A stretch of DNA of 64,000 bases from Escherichia coli 042 (GTDB lineage: Bacteria; Pseudomonadota; Gammaproteobacteria; Enterobacterales; Enterobacteriaceae), in assembly GCF_000027125.1 (NCBI RefSeq), contig NC_017626.1; one strand, written 5' to 3'. Positions 2,946 to 43,445 of this stretch are shown here, one piece after another. Position numbers and translations under genes: made by a program. How positions within the stretch are numbered: the first letter of the stretch is position 1; each line of letters starts with the position of its first letter. The notes beneath the pieces were generated by a model. That model worked only from the letters and a program-made list of their open reading frames with translations, did not search any database and was not told where the DNA came from.

Positions 2946-4021
2946 TCTTTCTTCAGCCGTACCCAGGCCCGCGTGCCGGAAGTCTCTTGCCGGTTTTGCA
3001 GGAAAAACTGCCCGTGATGCAACTGTGTAATGCGGCTGACAATACTTAACCCCAGACCAATCCCGCCATAACGGCTGTCCATACGTACAAACGCTTTACT
3101 CAACTCCCCGCATTTACTCTCATCAATACCCGGTCCTTCATCTTCAACGGCCATGACCGCTCCGCCATCTTCTTGCAGCTTAATCATAATGTTGCTGCCT
3201 TGCGGGCTGTAACGATGGGCGTTTTCTACCAGGTTTCGCAATAACATCCGCAGCAGGGTTGCATCACCTTGAACGGTGATGTCGGCGGCGCTCTCTGGCA
3301 ATAGCAGGGTTTGCTGTCGCTGGTCGAGCATGGTACTGAGTTCGTCATACGAGGGGAGAATGACATCTTCCAGCAGTTTTACATGTTGATAATTACCGGA
3401 AGAAAATGACTGTCCGGCACGCGCCAGTTGCAGCAGCTGGGAGACACTCTCCATCATCTGATCAAGCCGTGCCACTAACGGTGCTACATCAATGTGATGC
3501 GTTTTCGCCAGCAGTTCCAGATGCAAACGCACCCCCGCCAGTGGCGTTCGCAGTTCGTGCGCGACGTCAGCGGTAAACAACCTTTCGTTATCCAGCGTGC
3601 TGGTCAGGCGACTGACCAGATCGTTCAACGCCGAAACCACCGCTTCGATTTCGAGGGTGGCGCTGTGAATGGCAATAGGCGTTAAGTTGTCGGCGGTGCG
3701 CGCTTCCAGCTCTTTTTGCAGCTCCGCCAGCGGCCGGGTGATGCGGCGTACCGCCTGATAGCAGATAAATAGCGTCAGGCTGACCATAAAGACGCCGGGG
3801 ACGATCAGGCTGGCGACCGCCTCGCGGATCTCACGCATGATGTGGCGATCGTTGTTGCGATTGTCGCGTAGCGCCTGCTCAAACAGCTGAATCTGCTCGG
3901 TACTTTCATGCCATAGCCAGAAGACGCTGATCAGCTCAAACACCAACAAAATGGCCCCAATGGTCAATATCAGCCGTTGGCGCAGCGATATTGGTCGGCG
4001 CAGAAAACGCATCAGATTCAA
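2921..4021 (-). CDS. basS: Sensor histidine kinase BasS/PmrB
   Basis: ORF with HisKA motif (FTADVAHELRTPLAG) and HATPase region (GGIGLGLSIV), directly downstream of basR. True start may be the Met three codons in (MRFLRRP, coordinate 4012). Confidence 0.92.
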   Translation of the reverse strand: MNLMRFLRRPISLRQRLILTIGAILLVFELISVFWLWHESTEQIQLFEQALRDNRNNDRHIMREIREAVASLIVPGVFMVSLTLFICYQAVRRITRPLAELQKELEARTADNLTPIAIHSATLEIEAVVSALNDLVSRLTSTLDNERLFTADVAHELRTPLAGVRLHLELLAKTHHIDVAPLVARLDQMMESVSQLLQLARAGQSFSSGNYQHVKLLEDVILPSYDELSTMLDQRQQTLLLPESAADITVQGDATLLRMLLRNLVENAHRYSPQGSNIMIKLQEDGGAVMAVEDEGPGIDESKCGELSKAFVRMDSRYGGIGLGLSIVSRITQLHHGQFFLQNRQETSGTRAWVRLKKDQYVANQI

Positions 4022-4690
4022 TTAGTTTTCCTCATTCGCGACCAGCATATAGCCAAATCCGCGCACGGTGCGGATACGGGCTTTGCCCACTTTGTCGCGC
4101 AGATTGTGGATATGCACTTCCAGGGTGTTGGTCGAGGGTTCATTGTCCCAGTTATAGATGTCGTTGTAGAGAATTTCCCGATGCACCGGGCTGCCTGCTT
4201 TAAGCATCAGGCGCGACAGCAGAGCATATTCTTTGGGCGTCAGAATCAGTTCTTCTCCGCTCATCCATACCTGGCGGCGACCCATATTCAGCGTCAGATT
4301 GCCAACAATCAGCTCACTTTCGCCCTGATTATTATGGCGTCGTAGCAGGGCGCGGATACGGGCGTGTAACTCTTCCAGCGCAAAAGGCTTCACCAGATAG
4401 TCATCGGCACCGACATCCAGCCCGGCGATTTTGTCGGTCAGCGTATCGCGAGCGGTGAGGATCAGTACCGGCAGGGTGTATTTTTTCTGCCGGATACGGG
4501 CGAGAAAATGCAGTCCATCTTCGTCGGGTAACCCTAAATCCAGTACCACCAGGCTGTAATGACCGGCCTCAAGGCTTTGTTCCGCCATCCGCGCGGTTGT
4601 CACGCCATCGCACGCGTAGCCTTCGGTTTGCGCCGCCAGAATCAATCCCTGCAATAACAGCGTATCGTCTTCAACAATCAGAATTTTCAT
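4022..4690 (-). CDS. basR: Response regulator BasR/PmrA (OmpR family)
   Basis: 222 aa; [16 protein letters not shown] receiver domain plus winged-helix C-terminus; operon with eptA and basS. Confidence 0.95.
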
Positions 4691-12661: not shown

Positions 12662-14017
12662 ATGATGTCTGCACCCAAAATTACATTTATCGGCGCTGGT
12701 TCGACGATTTTCGTTAAAAATATTCTTGGTGATGTGTTCCATCGCGAGGCGCTGAAAACGGCGCATATTGCCCTGATGGACATTGATCCCACCCGCCTGG
12801 AAGAGTCGCATATTGTGGTGCGCAAGCTGATGGATTCAGCAGGGGCCAGCGGCAAAATCACCTGCCACACCCAACAGAAAGAAGCCTTACAGGATGCCGA
12901 TTTTGTCGTGGTGGCATTTCAGATTGGCGGTTATGAACCTTGCACGGTGACTGATTTCGAGGTCTGTAAGCGGCATGGTCTGGAACAAACCATTGCCGAT
13001 ACGTTGGGGCCGGGCGGTATTATGCGCGCGCTACGTACCATTCCGCATCTGTGGCAAATTTGCGAGGACATGACGGAAGTCTGCCCCGATGCCACCATGC
13101 TCAACTACGTTAACCCAATGGCGATGAATACCTGGGCGATGTATGCCCGCTATCCGCATATCAAACAGGTAGGGCTGTGCCATTCGGTGCAGGGAACGGC
13201 GGAAGAGCTGGCGCGTGACCTCAATATCGACCCGGCTACGCTGCGTTACCGTTGCGCAGGTATCAACCATATGGCGTTTTACCTGGAACTGGAGCGCAAA
13301 ACCGCCGACGGCAGTTACGTGAATCTCTACCCGGAACTGCTGGCGGCTTATGAAGCAGGGCAGGCACCGAAGCCGAATATTCATGGCAATACTCGCTGCC
13401 AGAATATTGTGCGCTATGAAATGTTCAAAAAGCTGGGCTACTTCGTCACGGAATCGTCAGAACATTTTGCTGAGTACACACCGTGGTTTATTAAGCCAGG
13501 TCGTGAGGATTTGATTGAGCGTTATAAAGTACCGCTGGATGAGTACCCGAAACGCTGCGTCGAGCAGCTGGCGAACTGGCATAAAGAGCTGGAGGAGTAT
13601 AAAAACGCCTCCCGGATTGATATTAAACCGTCACGGGAATATGCCAGCACAATCATGAACGCTATCTGGACTGGCGAGCCGAGTGTGATTTACGGCAACG
13701 TCCGTAACGATGTTTTGATTGATAACCTGCCACAAGGATGTTGCGTGGAAGTAGCCTGTCTGGTTGATGCTAATGGCATTCAGCCGACCAAAGTCGGTAC
13801 GCTACCTTCGCATCTGGCCGCTCTGATGCAAACCAACATCAACGTACAGACGCTGCTGACCGAAGCCATTCTTACGGAAAATCGCGACCGTGTTTACCAC
13901 GCCGCGATGATGGACCCGCATACTGCCGCCGTGCTGGGCATTGACGAAATATATGCTCTTGTTGACGACCTGATTGCTGCCCACGGCGACTGGCTGCCAG
14001 GCTGGTTGCACCGCTAA
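12662..14017 (+). CDS. melA: Alpha-galactosidase MelA (GH4, NAD/Mn-dependent)
   Basis: 451 aa; N-terminal Rossmann motif KITFIGAGSTIF; full length as in K-12. Confidence 0.95.
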   Translation: MMSAPKITFIGAGSTIFVKNILGDVFHREALKTAHIALMDIDPTRLEESHIVVRKLMDSAGASGKITCHTQQKEALQDADFVVVAFQIGGYEPCTVTDFEVCKRHGLEQTIADTLGPGGIMRALRTIPHLWQICEDMTEVCPDATMLNYVNPMAMNTWAMYARYPHIKQVGLCHSVQGTAEELARDLNIDPATLRYRCAGINHMAFYLELERKTADGSYVNLYPELLAAYEAGQAPKPNIHGNTRCQNIVRYEMFKKLGYFVTESSEHFAEYTPWFIKPGREDLIERYKVPLDEYPKRCVEQLANWHKELEEYKNASRIDIKPSREYASTIMNAIWTGEPSVIYGNVRNDVLIDNLPQGCCVEVACLVDANGIQPTKVGTLPSHLAALMQTNINVQTLLTEAILTENRDRVYHAAMMDPHTAAVLGIDEIYALVDDLIAAHGDWLPGWLHR

Positions 14018-14664
14018 GGGGTTATCGCTTCCGGCGCTCTGGTTATCAAGCCAAAGCGCCGTAGCTGGCGGCAATGCAAGCGAGCGAGGAATATCACCGT
14101 CGTTAATGCGCCAAGCAGCGCGCAGAACATATCGGATTGCGTGTCCCACTGGTCGCCCTGGGTGCCGAGAAAATCATCCGCTCCCTGACCCATTGCCAGC
14201 GCCGCCCACCACTCGATTAATTCATACATCGCGCTTATCGCCAGCGCCACGCAACAGACCAGAAACGCCACCATTTTACGTCCGCGAACGTACATCCCGC
14301 GCACAAGGATCTCACGTGCCACCAGTGCAGGCACCAGCCCCTGGAAAAAATGCCCCAGCTTGTCATACGGATTACGGCTCAACCCCAGCCATTCCTGCAC
14401 CTCAAAACCAACGGGGACTTTCGCGTAGGTGTATTGTCCGCCGACCATCAGGATGATGGCGTGAAAGAAAATGAGCGTATAGAGCAGCGGCGTTAACGGA
14501 TAACGTCTGGCGGTGGCAAGCAGTAGCGGCACGACAATAATCACCGGTGTCACTTCCATCAGCCAGGTGAGTTTGTCATGGGCCGAAATGCCGGTATAAA
14601 TCAGGATTAACGTTAGCGCCAGTGCGCCGGTGTTAAGAATTAACGGCTTGAGTGTGCGGGTCAT
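14014..14664 (-). CDS. yjdF: Inner-membrane protein YjdF (DUF2238)
   Basis: 216-aa multi-TM ORF beginning MTRTLKPLILNTGALALTLILIY. Its stop codon overlaps the melA stop; the last ~8 codons read antisense to the sequence immediately after melA. Confidence 0.85.
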   Translation of the reverse strand: MTRTLKPLILNTGALALTLILIYTGISAHDKLTWLMEVTPVIIVVPLLLATARRYPLTPLLYTLIFFHAIILMVGGQYTYAKVPVGFEVQEWLGLSRNPYDKLGHFFQGLVPALVAREILVRGMYVRGRKMVAFLVCCVALAISAMYELIEWWAALAMGQGADDFLGTQGDQWDTQSDMFCALLGALTTVIFLARLHCRQLRRFGLITRAPEAITP

Positions 14665-18421: not shown

Positions 18422-19141
18422 TTATTGGCAATATTGTTTCAGCAGTGAGTAGTGTTCTGCCTGAATTCGGTAACGGTAAACCGGACGCCCCGTTACGCCA
18501 TAATGGATACTGGTGAACAAGATGTGGCAGTTGACCAGCCAGATGAGGTATTTACGGCAGGAAACACGTGAGATGTTAACCTCGTTGGCCAGCTCGTCGG
18601 TTGAAAACTCATAGTCCTGATGCGCGTCAATCCACTGGCACAGCGTGCGTAACGTCTGCGGCGTTAAGCCTTTTGGCAAGCGACGAGGATCCTGTTCGTT
18701 GGAGCTGCTGCCGTGGATTAGCTGATCAAGCTCGGCCTGGTCATAATACTGATGTTTTTCCAGCGCCATTTTCTTTTGCCGCCAGCCGGTGAGCGCCTCT
18801 TCAAAGCGGGAAGCCTGGAAGGGTTTGATCAGGTAATCCACGACACCGTAATGCAGCGAATCTTTAATGGTTGCCGCATCGGCTGCGGAGGAGATGACAA
18901 TCACATCACTTTTGCAACGCGCGTTATGCAGGACAGGCAGTAAATCGAGCCCGTTCTCTTTTTGCATATAGATATCGAGCAATATCAGGTCGATAGGCGT
19001 ATCGCTATCGAAGATAATCTCTTTGGCTTTCTCCAGCGTCGAGGCTGTTCCACAGCATTGAAAGCCCGGGATTTGTGCCACGTATCGGCGATTCAGCTCC
19101 GCGACCATTGCGTCGTCATCGATAATTAATACATTGATCAT
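18422..19141 (-). CDS. dcuR: Response regulator DcuR
   Basis: 239 aa; receiver domain MINVLIIDDDAMVAELNRRYV; 4-nt overlap with the dcuS stop. Confidence 0.93.
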   Translation of the reverse strand: MINVLIIDDDAMVAELNRRYVAQIPGFQCCGTASTLEKAKEIIFDSDTPIDLILLDIYMQKENGLDLLPVLHNARCKSDVIVISSAADAATIKDSLHYGVVDYLIKPFQASRFEEALTGWRQKKMALEKHQYYDQAELDQLIHGSSSNEQDPRRLPKGLTPQTLRTLCQWIDAHQDYEFSTDELANEVNISRVSCRKYLIWLVNCHILFTSIHYGVTGRPVYRYRIQAEHYSLLKQYCQ

Positions 19142-20769
19142 CTGTTCGACCTCTCCCCGTCCCAGGGTATCTGGACAAAAAATTGTGTGAAAATCCCGGG
19201 TTCCGATTCCACGGCGATGCTGCCGCCGAGATTTTCTACCTGTTGTTTGACAAGTGCTAAACCGACGCCTCGCTCGCTTCCTTTTGTCGAGACACCTTTG
19301 TCAAAAATGTGATCGATTTTGTCGGGTGCGATCCCCGGTCCATCATCGTTAACTTCACAGTGCAGCCAGCCGTGACGGTAGTGCAATGTTACGCTAATTT
19401 CGCCACCGGGTTCCGGCCCTAATGCTTCCAGCGCGTTTTCTATCAGATTTCCCAACGTGGTAATCAGCGTCGCGACCTGGTCTTCACTGCCGCTGTCTGG
19501 CAGCTGGCTTTCACTGTTTAAAATCAGCGTATGGCCTAAATCGGTCGCGCGGTTAATCTTGCTGATTAAAAAACCAGCGATAACCGGAGATTTGATCTTA
19601 CCCAGCAGAGAGCCAATCTCTTCCTGATAGTTATTGGCTGTTTTGAGAATGTAATCTTCCAACTGCTTATAACTCTTCAGATGCAATAATCCGAGAATCA
19701 CATGCAATTTATTCATAAATTCGTGGGACCGTTCACGAAGTGCGTCAGCATAGTTGACCAGACCGTCGAGTCGTTGCATCAGTTTACGTACTTCAGTTTT
19801 GTCCCTGAAGGTTGAAATGGCACCGATGATAACGCCATTACTGCGCACCGGAACGGTGTTGATCAGTAATAGCCGGTCTTTAATCGTAATCTCTTCGTCG
19901 CGGCGCGGGGTACCGTCGCGTAACACTTCCGAGACATCTACCACCTGTGACCACGAGTGGCTTAGCGTCGACAGTTTCTCATCGTCCTGCGACTTACGGT
20001 AATTCAGCAATTCTTGTGCGGCATCGTTGATCAGCGTGACCTCGCCGCGATCGTCCACGGCAACGACGCCTTCTTTGATAGACTGCAACATGGCCTGGCG
20101 TTGCTCAAACAGCGTGGAGATTTCGTAGGGTTCCAGGCCGAAAAGGATTTTTTTCAGTACTTTAACCAGAATGCAGGTGCCAATCAGTCCGACCAGCATG
20201 CCAAATAATACTGACCAGATAATGCTCCAGCGACTGTCATTGATCTGTTGGGTCACGCGGCTTAACTCAAGGCCGATCGCCACCACGCCAATTTGTTTAT
20301 GATTTTCATCGTAGATGGGGGTAAATACGCGTAAAGCCTGCGCCAGAAAACCGCGATTGATAGCGACATTTTCTTCGCCATTCAGCGCTTTAAGGATGTC
20401 ATCACCTTTAAATGGCTGACCAATACGCTGGGCTTCAGGATGCGAGTAGCGAAGACTTTGCATATCGGTAACGACAATAAACAGCAGATCGTTGCGTTTG
20501 CGTACGGCTTCCGCGATGGCCTGGATGCCGCTCTCCTGCGGTTTTTTCTGCAAGCCCTGACGGATTTCCGGCGAGTCGGCGAGAGTACGCGCCACTGCCA
20601 GTGCCTTGTTGGCTAGCCCGTCTCGCGTCATATCACTGATTTGCGAGAAGTAAATCAGATGCACCACCAATAGCACCGAGAACAGTACCGCGCTGACCAT
20701 TAAGATCACAGTGGTACTCAATTTCATCGGACGTTTGCGTAACATGCGGTAGGGCAATGAATGTCTCAT
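19138..20769 (-). CDS. dcuS: C4-dicarboxylate sensor histidine kinase DcuS
   Basis: 543 aa; two TM segments flanking a periplasmic domain, then PAS and kinase domains. Confidence 0.93.
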   Translation of the reverse strand: MRHSLPYRMLRKRPMKLSTTVILMVSAVLFSVLLVVHLIYFSQISDMTRDGLANKALAVARTLADSPEIRQGLQKKPQESGIQAIAEAVRKRNDLLFIVVTDMQSLRYSHPEAQRIGQPFKGDDILKALNGEENVAINRGFLAQALRVFTPIYDENHKQIGVVAIGLELSRVTQQINDSRWSIIWSVLFGMLVGLIGTCILVKVLKKILFGLEPYEISTLFEQRQAMLQSIKEGVVAVDDRGEVTLINDAAQELLNYRKSQDDEKLSTLSHSWSQVVDVSEVLRDGTPRRDEEITIKDRLLLINTVPVRSNGVIIGAISTFRDKTEVRKLMQRLDGLVNYADALRERSHEFMNKLHVILGLLHLKSYKQLEDYILKTANNYQEEIGSLLGKIKSPVIAGFLISKINRATDLGHTLILNSESQLPDSGSEDQVATLITTLGNLIENALEALGPEPGGEISVTLHYRHGWLHCEVNDDGPGIAPDKIDHIFDKGVSTKGSERGVGLALVKQQVENLGGSIAVESEPGIFTQFFVQIPWDGERSNR

Positions 20770-20949: not shown

Positions 20950-21180
20950 ATGGATCAGGCGCTACTGGACGGGGGTTATCGCTGTTATACCGGCGAAAAG
21001 ATCGATGTCTATTTCAATACTGCGATATGTCAGCATTCTGGCAATTGCGTACGTGGCAACGGCAAGTTATTTAATCTCAAACGAAAGCCGTGGATCATGC
21101 CGGATGAAGTCGACGTTGCCACTGTGGTTAAAGTGATTGATACGTGCCCGAGCGGCGCGCTGAAATACCGTCATAAATAA
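20950..21180 (+). CDS. yjdI: Small Cys-rich protein YjdI (DUF1271-like)
   Basis: 76 aa with several Cys; directly upstream of yjdJ as in K-12. Confidence 0.8.
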
Positions 21181-21191
21181 GCGAGGGTAAA

Positions 21192-21464
21192 ATGGAAATA
21201 CGCGAAGGCCACAATAAATTTTACATTAATGACGAACAGGGCAAGCAAATCGCTGAAATTGTCTTTGTGCCGACCGGAGAGAATTTAGCGATTATCGAAC
21301 ATACCGATGTCGATGAAAGCCTGAAAGGGCAAGGGATTGGTAAACAGCTGGTTGCGAAAGTCGTGGAAAAAATGCGTCGGGAAAAACGAAAAATTATCCC
21401 ACTATGCCCATTTGCGAAACACGAATTTGATAAAACGCGTGAGTATGATGATATTCGAAGTTGA
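21192..21464 (+). CDS. yjdJ: GNAT-like acyltransferase YjdJ
   Basis: 90 aa; [25 protein letters not shown]... with a GNAT-like QGIGKQLV motif. Confidence 0.8.
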
Positions 21465-21692
21465 TGGGAGAGTACAGAGTCACGATATTTTTCTTGCTCT
21501 CCGCGGTGTGATGCAGGAGAGTATCTGAAGGGTAGGGGGATGCACAAAGAATGGTCAGAGAGAGCGTTTTTTTGTCCCAAGTCATCCCCTTTACTGAGCA
21601 AAAAAAAAAGAATATCTCCTATATGAAAATCATCGATCGGGGTTAATAAGTTTTGCGTCCCCAGAGCGTTCAATATTGATAGGAGTCATATT

Positions 21693-21989
21693 ATGGAAGG
21701 TAAAAACAAGTTCAATACTTATGTTGTTTCTTTTGATTATCCATCATCTTATTCCTCAGTGTTCTTAAGGTTAAGATCATTGATGTATGATATGAATTTC
21801 TCCTCTATCGTGGCTGATGAATATGGGATACCACGACAATTGAATGAAAACTCCTTCGCAATAACGACATCGTTAGCCGCAAGTGAAATCGAAGATTTAA
21901 TCAGGCTTAAATGCTTAGACTTACCGGATATTGACTTTGACCTCAACATTATGACAGTTGATGATTATTTCCGTCAGTTTTACAAGTAG
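21693..21989 (+). CDS. ghoS: Type V antitoxin GhoS (endoribonuclease)
   Basis: 98 aa; MEGKNKFNTYVVSFDYPSSYSSVFLRL; immediately followed by a ghoT-like small ORF. Confidence 0.85.
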   Translation: MEGKNKFNTYVVSFDYPSSYSSVFLRLRSLMYDMNFSSIVADEYGIPRQLNENSFAITTSLAASEIEDLIRLKCLDLPDIDFDLNIMTVDDYFRQFYK

Positions 21990-22016
21990 CCAGGAAGGAT
22001 AAGAAGAACATAAAAA

Positions 22017-22190
22017 ATGGCACTATTCTCTAAAATATTAATTTTTTATGTGATTGGTGTGAACATATCCTTTGTCATTATCTGGTTTATCTCACATGAG
22101 AAAACACATATTCGTTTACTTAGTGCATTCCTGGTCGGAATAACCTGGCCAATGAGTCTGCCTGTGGCATTACTTTTTTCTCTCTTTTAG
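22017..22190 (+). CDS. ghoT: Membrane-lytic toxin GhoT (57 aa; not in the supplied ORF track)
   Basis: Manual translation from atg 22017: MALFSKILIFYVIGVNISFVIIWFISHEKTHIRLLSAFLVGITWPMSLPVALLFSLF then TAG; two hydrophobic helices; 27 nt downstream of ghoS. Confidence 0.8.
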   Translation: MALFSKILIFYVIGVNISFVIIWFISHEKTHIRLLSAFLVGITWPMSLPVALLFSLF

Positions 22191-22265
22191 GAGCTGTAGT
22201 TGAGTGGACCCGCTGGTTATCTTGAAACGAAGCGTCTCTCCTCATAACTGGATTTGCGGAACGAC

Positions 22266-22295
22266 GAACGAAGCAGTCGCCTGACTGCTTCGTTC
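22266..22295. terminator. Hairpin between the convergent ghoT and lysU genes (possible bidirectional terminator)
   Basis: gaacgaagcagtc-gcc-tgactgcttcgttc stem-loop with T-rich flank. Confidence 0.45.
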
Positions 22296-22308
22296 ATTTA
22301 AGTGAAAT

Positions 22309-23826
22309 TTATTTCTGTGGGCGCATCGCCGGGAAGAGAATAACGTCGCGAATAGTATGGCTGTTAGTAAACAGCATAATCATTCGGTCGATACCAATAC
22401 CCAGACCAGCGGTTGGCGGCAGACCATATTCCAGCGCAGTCACGTAATCTTCGTCATAGAACATGGCTTCGTCGTCACCTGCAGCTTTAGCGTTAACCTG
22501 TTCCTGGAAACGTTCAGCCTGATCTTCTGCGTCGTTTAATTCGCTAAAACCATTACCGATTTCACGACCACCGATGAAGAATTCAAATCGGTCGGTGATT
22601 TCCGGGTTAACATCATTACGGCGCGCCAGCGGAGACACTTCTGCCGGATATTCCGTAATAAAGGTTGGCTGAATCAGATGTGCTTCTGCCACTTCATCAA
22701 AGATCTCCGTAACAATACGTCCCAGACCCCAGCTTTTCTCTACCGTAATTCCGATAGATTCAGCTAATGCTTTAGCAGCATCAAAATTATCCAGGTCGGC
22801 CATATCGGTTTCTGGACGATATTTTTTGATTGCTTCGCGCATGGTGAGTTTTTCAAACGGTTTGCCGAAATCAAACACATGCTCGCCATAAGTGACTTTA
22901 GTGGTACCAAGAACCTCTTGTGCCAGGGTGCGGAACAGGGACTCCGTCAGTTCAATCAAATCGTGGTAATCCGCATACGCCATGTAGAGTTCCATCATTG
23001 TGAACTCAGGATTATGGCGAACAGAAATACCTTCATTACGGAAGTTACGGTTGATTTCGAATACCCGTTCAAAACCGCCTACAACCAGACGTTTCAGATA
23101 CAGCTCTGGCGCGATACGCAGGTACATATCTAAATCCAGAGCGTTATGATGGGTAATAAACGGGCGAGCAGATGCCCCACCTGGAATTACCTGCATCATC
23201 GGGGTTTCTACTTCCATAAAGCCGCGCGCGACCATGAACTGACGGATAGCGGCCAGAATTTTTGAACGGACAACAAACGTTTGACGGGATTTATCGTTAG
23301 CGATGAGGTCCAGATAACGTTGACGATAACGGACTTCCTGATCCTGCAGACCATGGAATTTATCTGGTAAAGGACGTAGTGCTTTAGTCAGCAGGCGCAG
23401 CTCAGTACAGTGAATGGAAAGCTCACCCGTTTGCGTCTTAAACAGCGTACCGCGGGCACCGATAATGTCACCCAGATCCCATTTTTTAAACTGATCGTTA
23501 TAAACACCTTCTGGCAGGCTATCTCTTGCAACGTACAGTTGAATACGGCCACCGACATCCTGCAACGTTACAAAGGAGGCTTTCCCCATGATACGACGGG
23601 TCATCATTCGGCCAGCAACCGAGACTTCAATGTTTAAGGATTCCAGTTCCTGGTTATCCTTCGCATCAAACTCTTCGTGCAACTGGTCAGAGGTATGGTC
23701 GCGGCGAAAATCATTGGGAAACGCCACACCTTGCTGACGTAGTGCCGCCAGTTTTTCGCGGCGATTTCTCAGTTCATCGTTAAAATCAATAGCCTCATTG
23801 GCTCCCCGTGTTTCTCGTTCAGACAT
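22309..23826 (-). CDS. lysU: Lysyl-tRNA synthetase, inducible isoform LysU
   Basis: ORF 22309-23853; internal Met ([33 protein letters not shown]) gives 505 aa; class II aaRS motifs; positioned next to dtpC and cadA. Confidence 0.95.
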
Positions 23827-24062
23827 TTTGGTTCCTCTAAATCCAGCTTTCAATTTAGCGTAGATAAAGAGACAGATCGGTACACTGTATTATCTGCCTC
23901 GACTATTAATAACTCAGTTTATCTTATCGAAACTAACGCTTACCTCAAGTTGATATCACTAATAAATAACCATAAAAATGGTTTAAATGACTTATTAATC
24001 TCGATTTGCTAGTGTGATAAACTGAAAGTTAATTTATTCATAACCAATTGTTTTTACGACAG

Positions 24063-31660: not shown

Positions 31661-31682
31661 TGGTGCCGGACTCGGAATCGAA
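31661..31682 (-). repeat. att-like degenerate copy of the tRNA-Phe 3' end, marking the island boundary
   Basis: tggtgccggactcggaatcgaa matches the reverse complement of the tRNA-Phe 3' end (GGTTCGATTCCGAGTCCGGGCACCA) with one C missing; no D-arm or anticodon arm follows, so the tRNA body is not here. Confidence 0.7.
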
Positions 31683-32719: not shown

Positions 32720-33142
32720 TTACCGGTTCTGGTGCAGAAGCTGCAGATGACGAAGAGTACGGACATCCTCCCGGGCCTGTTCGATACAGGGCAACAGTGC
32801 TACCGAATCCGTTTTATCCTCATCGTTGTCAAAGATAATTCCCGATTCGCAGTCGATATTGTCCTGCAGCCACGCAATGAGGATATCCAGCGCTGTTTCA
32901 GTGGTTAATGGCATCACGCTCTGTATCACTGTATTGTCTTCCGGCAACTGATGAGGGCTGGCAGAAGTCGCCGGTGTTTCGGTAGCGTCACGTTCATTCA
33001 CCACGCGGAGTGAATAACCGTTTTCAGCGACTTTGTTAATCAGTTCAGCGAGCTCAATACCATCGACGTCAACGACAATGCGCCCCATGTTCAGCGCCTG
33101 CGCATTAATGCTGTCGGCTTCCAGCGTCAGGGCCAGTTTCAT
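32720..33142 (-). CDS. YeeW-like protein (140 aa)
   Basis: Immediately downstream of, and overlapping by 4 nt with, the cbtA-like toxin gene, as yeeW follows yeeV in CP4-44. Confidence 0.6.
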   Translation of the reverse strand: MKLALTLEADSINAQALNMGRIVVDVDGIELAELINKVAENGYSLRVVNERDATETPATSASPHQLPEDNTVIQSVMPLTTETALDILIAWLQDNIDCESGIIFDNDEDKTDSVALLPCIEQAREDVRTLRHLQLLHQNR

Positions 33143-33516
33143 TGTTTCGCCCCCGGATGTTTACCCAGGGTAATGTTATTTACCGTTCTGTAGTTGTCGC
33201 GTGTCATCAGGCCGGTTGCCCGGCGTGCCCGGAGAATATCAATGCTGTTGATTAACTGCGACGGGGCTCCTGCGCTGAATCCCGGCTGGTCGGTACGTAC
33301 CAGCGCGTATTTTTCAACGAGAAAGTTCACCGCGTCACACAGTGAAATCCCTGCCTCAATATGCTGCTCAATCACACGTTCATCAGCGAACGGTGTGTCA
33401 TTCAGCGTGAGGCCATAGTGCTGGTCCAGCAGTCGGGTGAGCAGTGTCTGCCAGATGGTGATGGGAGACGGGCAGCCCGATGCCTCCCGTACGTGAGTGT
33501 CGGGTAATGTATTCAT
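33139..33516 (-). CDS. cbtA: Type IV toxin, CbtA/YeeV/YkfI family (cytoskeleton inhibitor)
   Basis: ORF 33139-33621; from the internal Met (MNTLPDTH...) gives ~125 aa with LLDQHYGLTLNDTPFADERVIEQHIEAGISLCDAVNFLVEKYALVRTDQPGFSA, closely matching the CbtA family. Confidence 0.85.
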   Translation of the reverse strand: MNTLPDTHVREASGCPSPITIWQTLLTRLLDQHYGLTLNDTPFADERVIEQHIEAGISLCDAVNFLVEKYALVRTDQPGFSAGAPSQLINSIDILRARRATGLMTRDNYRTVNNITLGKHPGAKQ

Positions 33517-33562
33517 CTTAAGTTCTCTGTAACAGGTGGTTATAAAGGGGAGATATCCGGTG

Positions 33563-33940
33563 TTATACGGTGGTTGCGGGCGCTGCCGGTGTCGGATAAA
33601 CAGCCAGATAAACGTAACCACAGGAGCCGAGGGTGTCGGCTTCGCAGGTCAGCCCTTTCGCATACAGTGTCACGGTATGCTGATGGCGGGGATTCAGTTC
33701 ACCACTGGTGAGCATGAGCTCCAGTTGTTTCATCAGCAGCGGAAAGGCCTGGTCCAGGTGGTATGCATCTGCATCGCTGAACCGGCCTCTGATACCGGCG
33801 CGGTCGGCAAGGTAATGCAACCGGTTACCCTTCTGCACCAGACGTGCCCCGAAACAGGGCGTCACGGTGCAGGGCAGTCCCCACCAGAGGCGGTCGTGAT
33901 TGTCGTCGGGAGGCGTTGTCCCGGGGAGTGTGTCTGACAC
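33563..33940 (-). CDS. cbeA: Type IV antitoxin, CbeA/YeeU/YfjZ family
   Basis: 125 aa beginning MSDTLPGTTPPDDNHDRLWWGLPCTVTPCFGARLVQ; sits upstream of the toxin gene. Confidence 0.85.
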   Translation of the reverse strand: MSDTLPGTTPPDDNHDRLWWGLPCTVTPCFGARLVQKGNRLHYLADRAGIRGRFSDADAYHLDQAFPLLMKQLELMLTSGELNPRHQHTVTLYAKGLTCEADTLGSCGYVYLAVYPTPAAPATTV

Positions 33941-39992: not shown

Positions 39993-42900
39993 TCAGAAGG
40001 TCACATTCAGCGTGGCCTGACTGTTATAACCTTCAGCGCTGCTGCCGCTGACGCTGTGGGCATAACCGGCCTGAACGCCCAGGGTGATATTTTCCCGGAC
40101 ACGGGCTTCCAGTCCGGCCTGCAGATCCAGTGAAGTGCCATTCTGTGAGGGAGAGAACGTCATCCCGCTGCCTGCGGTGGAGGTCCCCACACGCATATCA
40201 CCCCGGGAGCTGAAGGTGCGGATAACGGAAGGCTGTACCCACCAGTTCACCGGCAGTTCACGCACACTGTGTTTTGCACTGTCACGCAGGGGGGCACGGG
40301 ATGAGGTGCCTTCACCAAAGGTCATATCGTTGTGGCTGCCCAGACGGAAACCGGCACGCACATGTTGTGCACTGCCATGCCCGAACTTCACATAACCGGC
40401 GTTGTCCTTACCGTCATCCAGCGAAAGCCCCTGCCAGGTGTACTGCAGCCGTGGCTCCAGCATCAGGTTGTCAGTAATACTGAAGGGCAGACCGGTTTCC
40501 AGTGAGCCCAGCCAGCCCCAGCCCCGTGCGCGGAAGTCGTTATTGCCCGATGACGCTTTCATACTGTGGCGGGTTCCCTGTGCCACAATGTCAGCCCACA
40601 GGCCGGAGGAGGTGTGTGTCAGGTTCATATATCCGCCCAGGCTGCCGGCATCATCCCGGACCGTGCCGGCGCGGGAGCCGTCATCATCCTTAACATCAAC
40701 GGAAGAATGGCCTGCAGCACCATACACTCCTGTCGTCAGTGACATACCGGCGACCTCTGTTCTGAGCAGGTCACCCTCCAGACGGACGAAGCCATAGCTG
40801 CCGCTGCTTTCCGGCGTGGCCCCACGGGCAATACCGCCGTTGTTATCGTGACCGAGATGGCCGCCCTGAATGCTGAGACGGACGCTGTTATTTTCACCGT
40901 TTACACCGGTCTGATGGCTGCGTGAGCCTGCCAGAATCCGGTCATAGTCCATTGCCTGTGTCAGCATGGAGGCGTACAGGGGGACTTCAGCACGATAACG
41001 TTCTTCACTGCGCAGATACCAGCTCTCATCACTGTCCCGGTTGAGGGTGTAGTTAAAGGCCCCGGCCTGCAGCATATTCCCCTGGACAAAAGCCCCTTCC
41101 TCCGTGGTGGCACCGTTAATGGCCTCAACCACCTGAATACCCTTACCGGTGGTCGCCAGCCCCGTACCACTGTTGCCGGCGTTCACCAGATTCAGGATGG
41201 TTTTTCCGGTTGCCCTGCCACCGTCAATGACCAGTCTGTCAGCATTGTTCTGCGCCATATCCGGGCGTACACGCAGGCTGATGGTGCCATTCTGCCCGTT
41301 CAGGTTTTTCACCTGCAGGGTTGCCGGTACGAACTTCCCTGTGCGGGTGGAGGTGAAATGAATCTGTCCGGCATGGCTGAGGTCATCCACCACCGACTGC
41401 ACCGTGGCGTTATCAGGGATATTCCAGGTGGCACCGGATGTCAGGGTGACATTCGTGGGGTCAATGGCACCGTTCAGCACTGTGCTGCCGGTCAGCTTCA
41501 GGGCCGTGCCGCGCTGAGCGATGACATCCGTGGTGACGGTACTGTCGTTCAGCGTCAGCGTGCCTTCATTCAGGTTGACGGTTTTCTGGGTGAGTGTGGT
41601 GTTGCTGACAGTGAGTGTGCCACTTCCTGATTTTTCCACCCTGCCGTTACCGGTAAGAGCGCCTCCCTGCAGGAGTGCATCACCTTCACGGATGGTCAGG
41701 GTATCGTTATTCACCGTTTTCCCGGAAAGGGTAAGCGTGGCACCGTTATTCAGCGTGGTGGTGCCCGCCAGCGAGCCCCCTCTGGCAGTGAACAGTCCGC
41801 CATTTACCGTGGTATCCGTGGCCGTATCACCGGCGTTCAGCGTGAATGAACTGCCTTTTTCCAGCATCAGGGCATCCGCCTGACCGCCCCCGATACGGAA
41901 TGCCGTTCCGTCGCTCCGGGTACCACTGACAGCGGCCCCGGAATCGGCCAGCAGTACACCGCCATTCCCCATGGATACGGTGGTGGCGGCACCACCGTTG
42001 CGGACATCCAGCGTTCCGCCATCATCCACACGGGTATTAGTGGCTGTGTGTCCGCTCAGCACATCCAGACGTCCGCCATTTTCCAGTACGACATTATCAG
42101 CCTTACCCGCCAGAACGGAGAATGCTCCCAGGCGGTTTGTGCCGGTGACGGTTGCAGCTGTGCTGGTAACCAGTGCACCTCCCGTGTTCTGGGTGACATC
42201 AGACGCTTTACCGCCGGCATTCACCTGCAGCTTTCCTTTCTGGTTGATGGTGGTATGCGCGGTAGTTCCTCCTTCCTTAATCACCTGCCAGCCCCCCTCG
42301 TTAATTACCGTGTTCAGCGCAAGTCCGTATTTGTGCACATACTGGTTTCCTCCCTCCAGCCGGGTGTTATGTGCCTCGCCGTGTACCGTCTGGTCACCGC
42401 CGGCGTAAATGAGGGTGTCCCGTGCCATCCCCGAAGACCAGATAACCTGCCGGCCATTTTTGTTGATGGTGGTGGATTCAGCCGTCCCTCCGACCATCTG
42501 ACCGCTGGACACATTTTCAGACTCCGGACCACCTTCTGCACCGGTGTTGACGATGGTTCCGGTTGCCTGCCCGCCATGTTTAATGGTCTGGTAGCCAGAC
42601 TGGTTAATCACCGTTCCGGATGCACTGCCGCCTGCATGTATCCATTGTTCACCACCGTTAAGGACAGTACCGTAAGCCTGCCCGCGCAGATTCTGTCCTC
42701 CACCGGCACTGATAACCGTATCCGTGGCACTGCCACCTGCCATGACATCCTGCAGACCGTTTGCGGTGACCGTGGTGTTTCTGGCAGTGCCACCCCGGGC
42801 TATCTGCTGACCGCCGGTGTTGTCATCAGAGTCCGGCCCCAGCTCAAGCCCGGTACTGACAGTCACGCCATCAGCTGTTCCGGATACAAACTGGTTGTCA

Positions 42901-43112
42901 TGGTTTACCAGTGTTCCGCCATTCACTGTTTCACCCGGGTGCACAACGATGTCAGCAGCCAGCACCGGGAGTGACGTGACTGCGGCAAGAGACAGTGCAA
43001 CCGCCACACCGCCACGTTTACCCCGTGCGCGGGCCAGTTCGGAGGCAACCACGAAAGCGCCCGTAATGTGATTCCATACCAGCCTGTAGCAGGTATTCAG
43101 ATGTCGTTTCAT
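39993..43112 (-). CDS. flu: Antigen 43 (Flu) self-associating autotransporter adhesin
   Basis: ORF 39993-43118; from the third Met (MKRHLNTCYRLVWNH...) gives 1039 aa; extended signal peptide, beta-helical passenger repeats, C-terminal beta-barrel ending ...ATLNVTF. Confidence 0.93.
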   Translation of the reverse strand: MKRHLNTCYRLVWNHITGAFVVASELARARGKRGGVAVALSLAAVTSLPVLAADIVVHPGETVNGGTLVNHDNQFVSGTADGVTVSTGLELGPDSDDNTGGQQIARGGTARNTTVTANGLQDVMAGGSATDTVISAGGGQNLRGQAYGTVLNGGEQWIHAGGSASGTVINQSGYQTIKHGGQATGTIVNTGAEGGPESENVSSGQMVGGTAESTTINKNGRQVIWSSGMARDTLIYAGGDQTVHGEAHNTRLEGGNQYVHKYGLALNTVINEGGWQVIKEGGTTAHTTINQKGKLQVNAGGKASDVTQNTGGALVTSTAATVTGTNRLGAFSVLAGKADNVVLENGGRLDVLSGHTATNTRVDDGGTLDVRNGGAATTVSMGNGGVLLADSGAAVSGTRSDGTAFRIGGGQADALMLEKGSSFTLNAGDTATDTTVNGGLFTARGGSLAGTTTLNNGATLTLSGKTVNNDTLTIREGDALLQGGALTGNGRVEKSGSGTLTVSNTTLTQKTVNLNEGTLTLNDSTVTTDVIAQRGTALKLTGSTVLNGAIDPTNVTLTSGATWNIPDNATVQSVVDDLSHAGQIHFTSTRTGKFVPATLQVKNLNGQNGTISLRVRPDMAQNNADRLVIDGGRATGKTILNLVNAGNSGTGLATTGKGIQVVEAINGATTEEGAFVQGNMLQAGAFNYTLNRDSDESWYLRSEERYRAEVPLYASMLTQAMDYDRILAGSRSHQTGVNGENNSVRLSIQGGHLGHDNNGGIARGATPESSGSYGFVRLEGDLLRTEVAGMSLTTGVYGAAGHSSVDVKDDDGSRAGTVRDDAGSLGGYMNLTHTSSGLWADIVAQGTRHSMKASSGNNDFRARGWGWLGSLETGLPFSITDNLMLEPRLQYTWQGLSLDDGKDNAGYVKFGHGSAQHVRAGFRLGSHNDMTFGEGTSSRAPLRDSAKHSVRELPVNWWVQPSVIRTFSSRGDMRVGTSTAGSGMTFSPSQNGTSLDLQAGLEARVRENITLGVQAGYAHSVSGSSAEGYNSQATLNVTF

Positions 43113-43304
43113 CAGCATTTCCTTAATCAGAGTGAGGGTGAATAAAAAAGCCGGTATCCACAGATGTGGATACCGGCAGGTAAAGGGTTACAGTGCCGGA
43201 GGTCCGGCTGACGGAAGTTTCTGACGTGTGGCTCTGTTGTTCCCTGAATCTCATGTCTGTGTGTATCTGCGCACGTTGCTAACAGGAGTTATTATTAGCA
43301 TGAC

Positions 43305-43340
43305 GATCGATATAAACGATCGATAAAATAGGTATCGATC
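43305..43340. promoter_or_regulatory. Ag43 phase-variation switch: three clustered GATC sites (Dam/OxyR)
   Basis: GATC at 43305, 43318 and 43337 within gacGATCgatataaacGATCgataaaataggtatcGATCg, ~190-230 bp upstream of the flu start codon. Confidence 0.7.
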
Positions 43341-43445
43341 GTTTTATTCTATTATCAGGCTATTGCACGGACAAGAGAGACAGTAACGAAAACAGCGCTT
43401 TTGTGAGCAGACTCAGAGGCAGGGAGGACATCATCCACAACAGGT

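Follow-up and report, generated by a model that had tools for sequence, protein, structure and literature searches.

The ghoS-ghoT locus of Escherichia coli 042 encodes the same antitoxin and toxin proteins as K-12

In the 64,000-nucleotide stretch of the Escherichia coli 042 chromosome that was analysed here, referred to as the window, ghoS and ghoT almost certainly make up the E. coli ghoST operon in its intact chromosomal form, a type V toxin-antitoxin system. Judged from the sequence, the identity of the two genes is beyond reasonable doubt. ghoST is the founding type V toxin-antitoxin system, and the cleavage of the toxin mRNA by the antitoxin is the property that defines this class. In K-12, GhoS and GhoT were reportedly described as a type V system by Wang et al. 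in 2012 (Nat Chem Biol 8:855). The GhoS and GhoT proteins found here are the pair already characterised in K-12, and the locus reveals nothing new on type V toxin-antitoxin systems.

A preliminary description of this DNA had claimed a type V ghoS-ghoT pair, and this was borne out by protein family searches, by the comparison with K-12 and by the same RefSeq names and neighbouring genes. GhoS matched the Pfam family PF11080 (GhoS) with an E-value of 6.1e-41 and 138.8 bits (cutoff 21), covering the model positions 6-93 of 94. The 57-residue protein matched PF10753 (Toxin_GhoT_OrtT) over the entire model (positions 1-55 of 55) with an E-value of 8.9e-26 and 90.4 bits (cutoff 22.1). When both proteins were compared directly with those of E. 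coli K-12 MG1655, they matched residue for residue. In RefSeq, the matching K-12 genes are named 'type V toxin-antitoxin system endoribonuclease antitoxin GhoS' (WP_000398619.1) and 'type V toxin-antitoxin system toxin GhoT' (WP_001173343.1). GhoS was also identical at 98/98 residues to the PDB chain 2LLZ_A, which was deposited as 'Uncharacterized protein yjdK'; YjdK is the old name of GhoS. Since its sequence is identical to that of the solved 2LLZ structure, GhoS is predicted to adopt the Cas2-like ferredoxin fold. The search of the NCBIfam library gave no match for the GhoS or GhoT proteins. This blank is no evidence against their identity, because the library contains no HMM for either family and PGAP names both proteins in RefSeq.

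The preliminary description had further stated that ghoT was missing from the list of open reading frames as its 57-residue product falls below a cutoff of 60 residues, and that it lies 27 nt downstream of ghoS. With a minimum of 20 residues, the open reading frame listing recovered both genes, so the default cutoff of 60 residues explains the absence of ghoT. The gap between the two genes is 27 nt long, as had been claimed. The coordinates are collected in Table 1. For annotation hygiene, this means that a 60-residue minimum hides genuine genes for small toxins, ghoT being one of them.

Table 1. Positions of ghoS, ghoT and the adjoining features in the window
Feature	Position	Strand	Basis
dcuS	19138..20769	-	Open reading frame list, synteny
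yjdI	20950..21180	+	Fer4_19
yjdJ	21192..21464	+	GNAT
yjdJ-ghoS intergenic region, 228 nt, presumed ghoST promoter and 5' UTR	21465..21692	+	Sequence
ghoS (yjdK), 98-aa antitoxin, predicted Cas2-like endoribonuclease	21693..21989	+	ATG start; open reading frame list, PF11080, identity to K-12 and 2LLZ_A
ghoS-ghoT spacer, 27 nt	21990..22016	+	Nucleotide-identical to K-12
ghoT (yjdO), 57-aa predicted hydrophobic membrane toxin	22017..22190	+	ATG start; open reading frame list, PF10753, identity to K-12
Perfect 13-bp hairpin GAACGAAGCAGTC-GCCT-GACTGCTTCGTTC, between convergent ghoT and lysU	22266..22295	.	Folding
lysU, convergent to ghoT	22309..23853	-	Open reading frame list, synteny

A short frame of this kind calls for some care. 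The 57-residue frame lies in an AT-rich region (35% GC) downstream of ghoS and might have been a chance open frame; stops are common in such DNA, yet short open reading frames are numerous in any six-frame listing. The match to the full Pfam model at 8.9e-26 speaks against a chance origin, as do the identity of its nucleotides to the experimentally characterised K-12 ghoT and its annotation as ghoT in RefSeq across thousands of genomes. In addition, the other ghoT alleles vary synonymously only. On these grounds the chance frame was rejected, and we give it no credence. Another candidate considered for the 57-residue frame was OrtT (YdcX), an orphan paralogue of GhoT in E. coli. It resembles GhoT in belonging to PF10753, in its length of 57 residues with two transmembrane segments, in the conserved F38 and in damaging the membrane. 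Its identity to GhoT is 63%, however, no antitoxin gene adjoins it, GhoS does not neutralise it, and its mRNA has two GCU sites (PMC4344625). The 100% identity to GhoT, the adjoining ghoS and the lack of any GCU site rule out OrtT, and the frame was assigned to ghoT.

The DNA of the two genes and their spacer was 99.2% identical to K-12 over 498 bp. Divergence disrupting the open reading frames was looked for in this alignment, and neither a frameshift nor an internal stop was found. In ghoS, 4 nucleotides differ (1.3%), all of them synonymous, in the codons of R26, L72, D81 and D91. No nucleotide differs from K-12 in the 174-nt coding sequence of ghoT or in the 27-nt spacer, and the RNA substrate of GhoS is therefore unchanged. 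Downstream, 4 substitutions are found in the region between ghoT and lysU. Among four other alleles, the sole amino acid change was N85S in GhoS, whereas the GhoT protein was invariant. The most divergent full-length alleles that were fetched showed 98.6-98.8% identity and carried two synonymous changes in ghoT. Intact open reading frames with nearly exclusively synonymous variation are typical of genes that are expressed and under purifying selection. Taken together, the likeness to the K-12 pair (YjdK/YjdO; 2LLZ) comprises both proteins, the spacer, the ghoT DNA, the flanking genes, the GCU asymmetry and the residues R28 and F38, whereas the differences consist of the synonymous ghoS changes and the substitutions upstream and downstream of the genes. 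To our knowledge, none of the substitutions in the ghoST region relative to K-12 has a known functional consequence.

The region upstream of ghoS is the part that differs most from K-12. It has 9 substitutions and an A run that is 2 nt longer, with ten A residues at 21600-21609 compared to eight in K-12, amounting to about 4% divergence against 1.3% in ghoS and 0% in ghoT. The Shine-Dalgarno sequence of ghoS, AGGAG at 21681-21685, is located 7 nt before the ATG and is unchanged from K-12. When the 228-nt region between yjdJ and ghoS was scanned for the sigma-70 consensus, no site with at least 9/12 matches was found. On the plus strand, hits were confined to the yjdJ gene (21427-21455) and the ghoS gene (21937-21965). 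With 5 hits overall, the count was within about one standard deviation of the shuffle mean of 3.0 ± 2.0. No promoter was therefore assigned. The failed scan says little, because the corresponding K-12 stretch is nearly identical and is also without a strong consensus.

The higher divergence of this region and its lack of a strong sigma-70 match could be taken to mean that ghoST, though present, is silent in this lineage or under a different regulation, either as a non-functional remnant or with an altered dosage of toxin and antitoxin caused by the diverged upstream region. We regard this as exceedingly improbable. The same upstream intergenic sequence is found in strain A10, the closest genome (99.9% over 1001 bp), and K-12 is likewise without a strong consensus promoter at this place. 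Moreover, neither the Shine-Dalgarno sequence nor the spacer has changed, and both frames are intact and protein-identical with synonymous changes only, in the pattern of purifying selection. Nothing suggests a regulatory effect of the upstream changes. We consider it highly improbable that the 9 substitutions and the extension of the A run from eight to ten residues, common to strain A10, affect the transcription of ghoST or shift its ratio of toxin to antitoxin compared with K-12. Neither the upstream change nor an old acquisition, if true, alters what the genes are, and the reading of the locus as an intact ghoST operon is the one followed below.

The spacer between the genes is purine-rich (AGGAAGGATAAGAAGAAC) and contains two candidate ribosome-binding sequences, AGGAAGGA at 21992-21999 and AAGAAGAA at 22002-22009. 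On the other side of ghoT, the 118-nt intergenic region up to lysU (22191-22308) folds with a minimum free energy of -38.9 kcal/mol (z = -2.97) and includes the perfect hairpin listed in Table 1. On the plus strand, an imperfect U tract, ATTTAAGTGAAATTTATTT, comes after the hairpin. A simple terminator scan of the region found nothing, as the hairpin has no canonical U run and fails the T-run rule. The hairpin is likely to act as the transcript end or as a stabiliser for ghoST. A scan of the whole window with Rfam found no RNA family overlapping ghoST.

Residues that are known to be important in the two proteins were then located in the sequences. In GhoS, R28 is present and flanked by L25 and M31. 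R28 has been reported as the residue that matters most for the endoribonuclease activity (PMC4010927). In GhoT, F38 is present, and the exchange F38R abolishes the toxicity (PMC4344625). GhoT has a GRAVY value of 1.50, and the Kyte-Doolittle profile shows hydrophobic segments at about residues 4-26 and 34-57, its maxima lying at about 7-26 and 34-57. A polar trough appears in the profile at 23-41, and the loop SHEKTHIR joins the hydrophobic segments. For GhoT and OrtT, two transmembrane domains have been predicted (PMC4344625), and the hydropathy profile obtained here agrees with these predicted domains. GhoS has been reported as a structural homologue of the Cas2 endoribonucleases of CRISPR-Cas systems, with conserved catalytic residues common to both (PMC4010927). 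It differs from Cas2 in its neighbours, which are yjdJ and ghoT with no adjoining CRISPR array or cas genes, and in that it serves as an antitoxin instead of taking part in spacer acquisition.

From the identity to the K-12 genes, the following mode of action would be expected. ghoS and ghoT would be transcribed together as a single operon. GhoT would be a 57-residue peptide of the inner membrane with two helices, and its production would damage the membrane, dissipate ATP as well as the proton motive force, and slow or stop growth; when overproduced, GhoT would lead to 'ghost' cells. GhoS would be a stable, Cas2-like and sequence-specific endoribonuclease. It would neutralise GhoT through cleavage of the mRNA in its ghoT part and not by binding to the protein. 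In stressed cells, MqsR, a type II toxin and an RNase specific for GCU, would cut the ghoS part of the mRNA and spare ghoT, and this cut would move the balance towards the synthesis of the toxin. The gene pair mqsRA is located elsewhere on the E. coli chromosome, outside of the 64-kb window. The physiological role of chromosomal toxin-antitoxin systems in persistence is debated.

The individual steps have been described for K-12. According to published reports, the K-12 GhoS protein, which is identical to the one found here, cleaves the ghoT mRNA specifically, does not bind the toxin and is not labile (PMC4344625, PMC3874152, PMC4010927). Published work also states that GhoT damages the membrane, lowers ATP and reduces growth (PMC4344625, PMC3874152). 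The cleavage of the ghoS region by MqsR and the resulting enrichment of the ghoT mRNA, a cascade in which one toxin-antitoxin system controls another, are likewise described in several papers (PMC4344625, PMC4010927, PMC4905990, PMC3874152, PMC5086665), which all refer to Wang et al. 2012 and 2013. From this literature on identical sequences, we infer the RNase activity, the toxicity and the MqsR cascade for the locus in the window. This inference is strong, because the published tests used proteins and an RNA substrate identical to those encoded here.

The MqsR step can be followed at the level of the GCU sites. In ghoS, GCT occurs at 3 sites (21813, 21905 and 21913), whereas none is found in the spacer and ghoT, where about 2.2 would be expected from the composition. 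The same pattern of 3 versus 0 sites was observed in four other alleles, those of K-12, strain A10 and two more distant ones. The ghoT mRNA has been described as belonging to the few mRNAs of E. coli that lack a 5'-GCU site, and MqsR prefers to degrade the ghoS part (PMC4344625, PMC4905990, PMC3874152). The GCU asymmetry observed here matches these published statements on MqsR and the ghoT mRNA.

The gene neighbourhood was compared with K-12 and strain A10. The order dcuR-dcuS, yjdI-yjdJ-ghoS-ghoT and lysU is common to both strains and the window. At the K-12 locus, the antitoxin gene is also directly upstream of the toxin gene and on the same strand. To follow the distribution within the species, positions 21400-22400 were compared by megablast with 5,426 complete E. 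coli genomes, and 5,355 of these gave matches. The features under a megablast match were annotated as ghoS, ghoT, lysS and yjdJ; the lysS label stands for the lysU paralogue at this locus. The 498-bp ghoST segment was found at a coverage of at least 80% in about 97% of the genomes (5272/5426), nearly always as one copy. ghoST is effectively part of the core genome in E. coli.

A genome in which the locus has been lost is that of E. coli ET220 (NZ_CP100981.1, stretch 3001-4217). There, an IS1B element lies 50 nt into ghoS, and an IS1-associated deletion extends as far as tRNA-Phe, with the rest of ghoS as well as ghoT, lysU, dtpC and cadABC removed. In this strain, the toxin and antitoxin genes disappeared along with the cad locus, which shows that such a loss occurs and is tolerated.

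The GC content of ghoST is 35%, compared to 42% in yjdJ, 48% in lysU, 50% in dcuS and 50.5% in the whole window. The AT-richness suggests, in the sense of being compatible with it, that ghoST is an old horizontally acquired cassette.

Several other features of the window were noted. The gene melB, encoding the melibiose permease, is absent. The stop codon of melA at 14017 is followed by 20 nt and then by the 3' end of yjdF (14017-14038), whereas in strain A10 this junction is occupied by about 1.66 kb, melB among them. The yjdF product has 216 residues here and 209 in A10, a difference of 7 codons in the frame. The same melB-less junction was found in 1,264 of the 5,426 complete genomes of E. 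coli, which makes it a common polymorphism.

The homology to strain A10, which is free of the island, ends at 31682. This position belongs to a degenerate 22-nt copy of the tRNA-Phe 3' end (31661-31682). ARAGORN found no intact tRNA in the 64-kb window. A genomic island at pheU (tRNA-Phe) extends from 31683 to the end of the window and beyond it, for a length of at least 32.3 kb, and is 99.8% identical to an island at the same site in strain UPEC69. It includes genes for a DUF4942 protein, radC, an antirestriction gene, Ag43 (39993-43118, minus strand), an IS1 remnant and hha. From about 52875, on the plus strand, a type VI secretion cluster follows with tssB, tssC, tssK, tssL, hcp, tssH and vgrG. 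The island also carries a second toxin-antitoxin pair at 33139-33940 on the minus strand, consisting of a predicted CbtA-family toxin at about 33139-33516 and, at 33563-33940, the predicted type IV antitoxin CbeA. The names cbtA and cbeA are those annotated in the UPEC69 island, which is 99.8% identical, and would apply to the open reading frames of the window at the matching coordinates.

Two matches above the Rfam gathering score were obtained elsewhere in the window. The IS102 RNA (RF00124, 255.5 bits) was found at 43137-43342 on the minus strand, just upstream of the Ag43 gene of the island. The enterobacterial sRNA STnc630 (RF02052, 181.4 bits) was located at 2787-2952 on the plus strand, near the proP/pmrR end.
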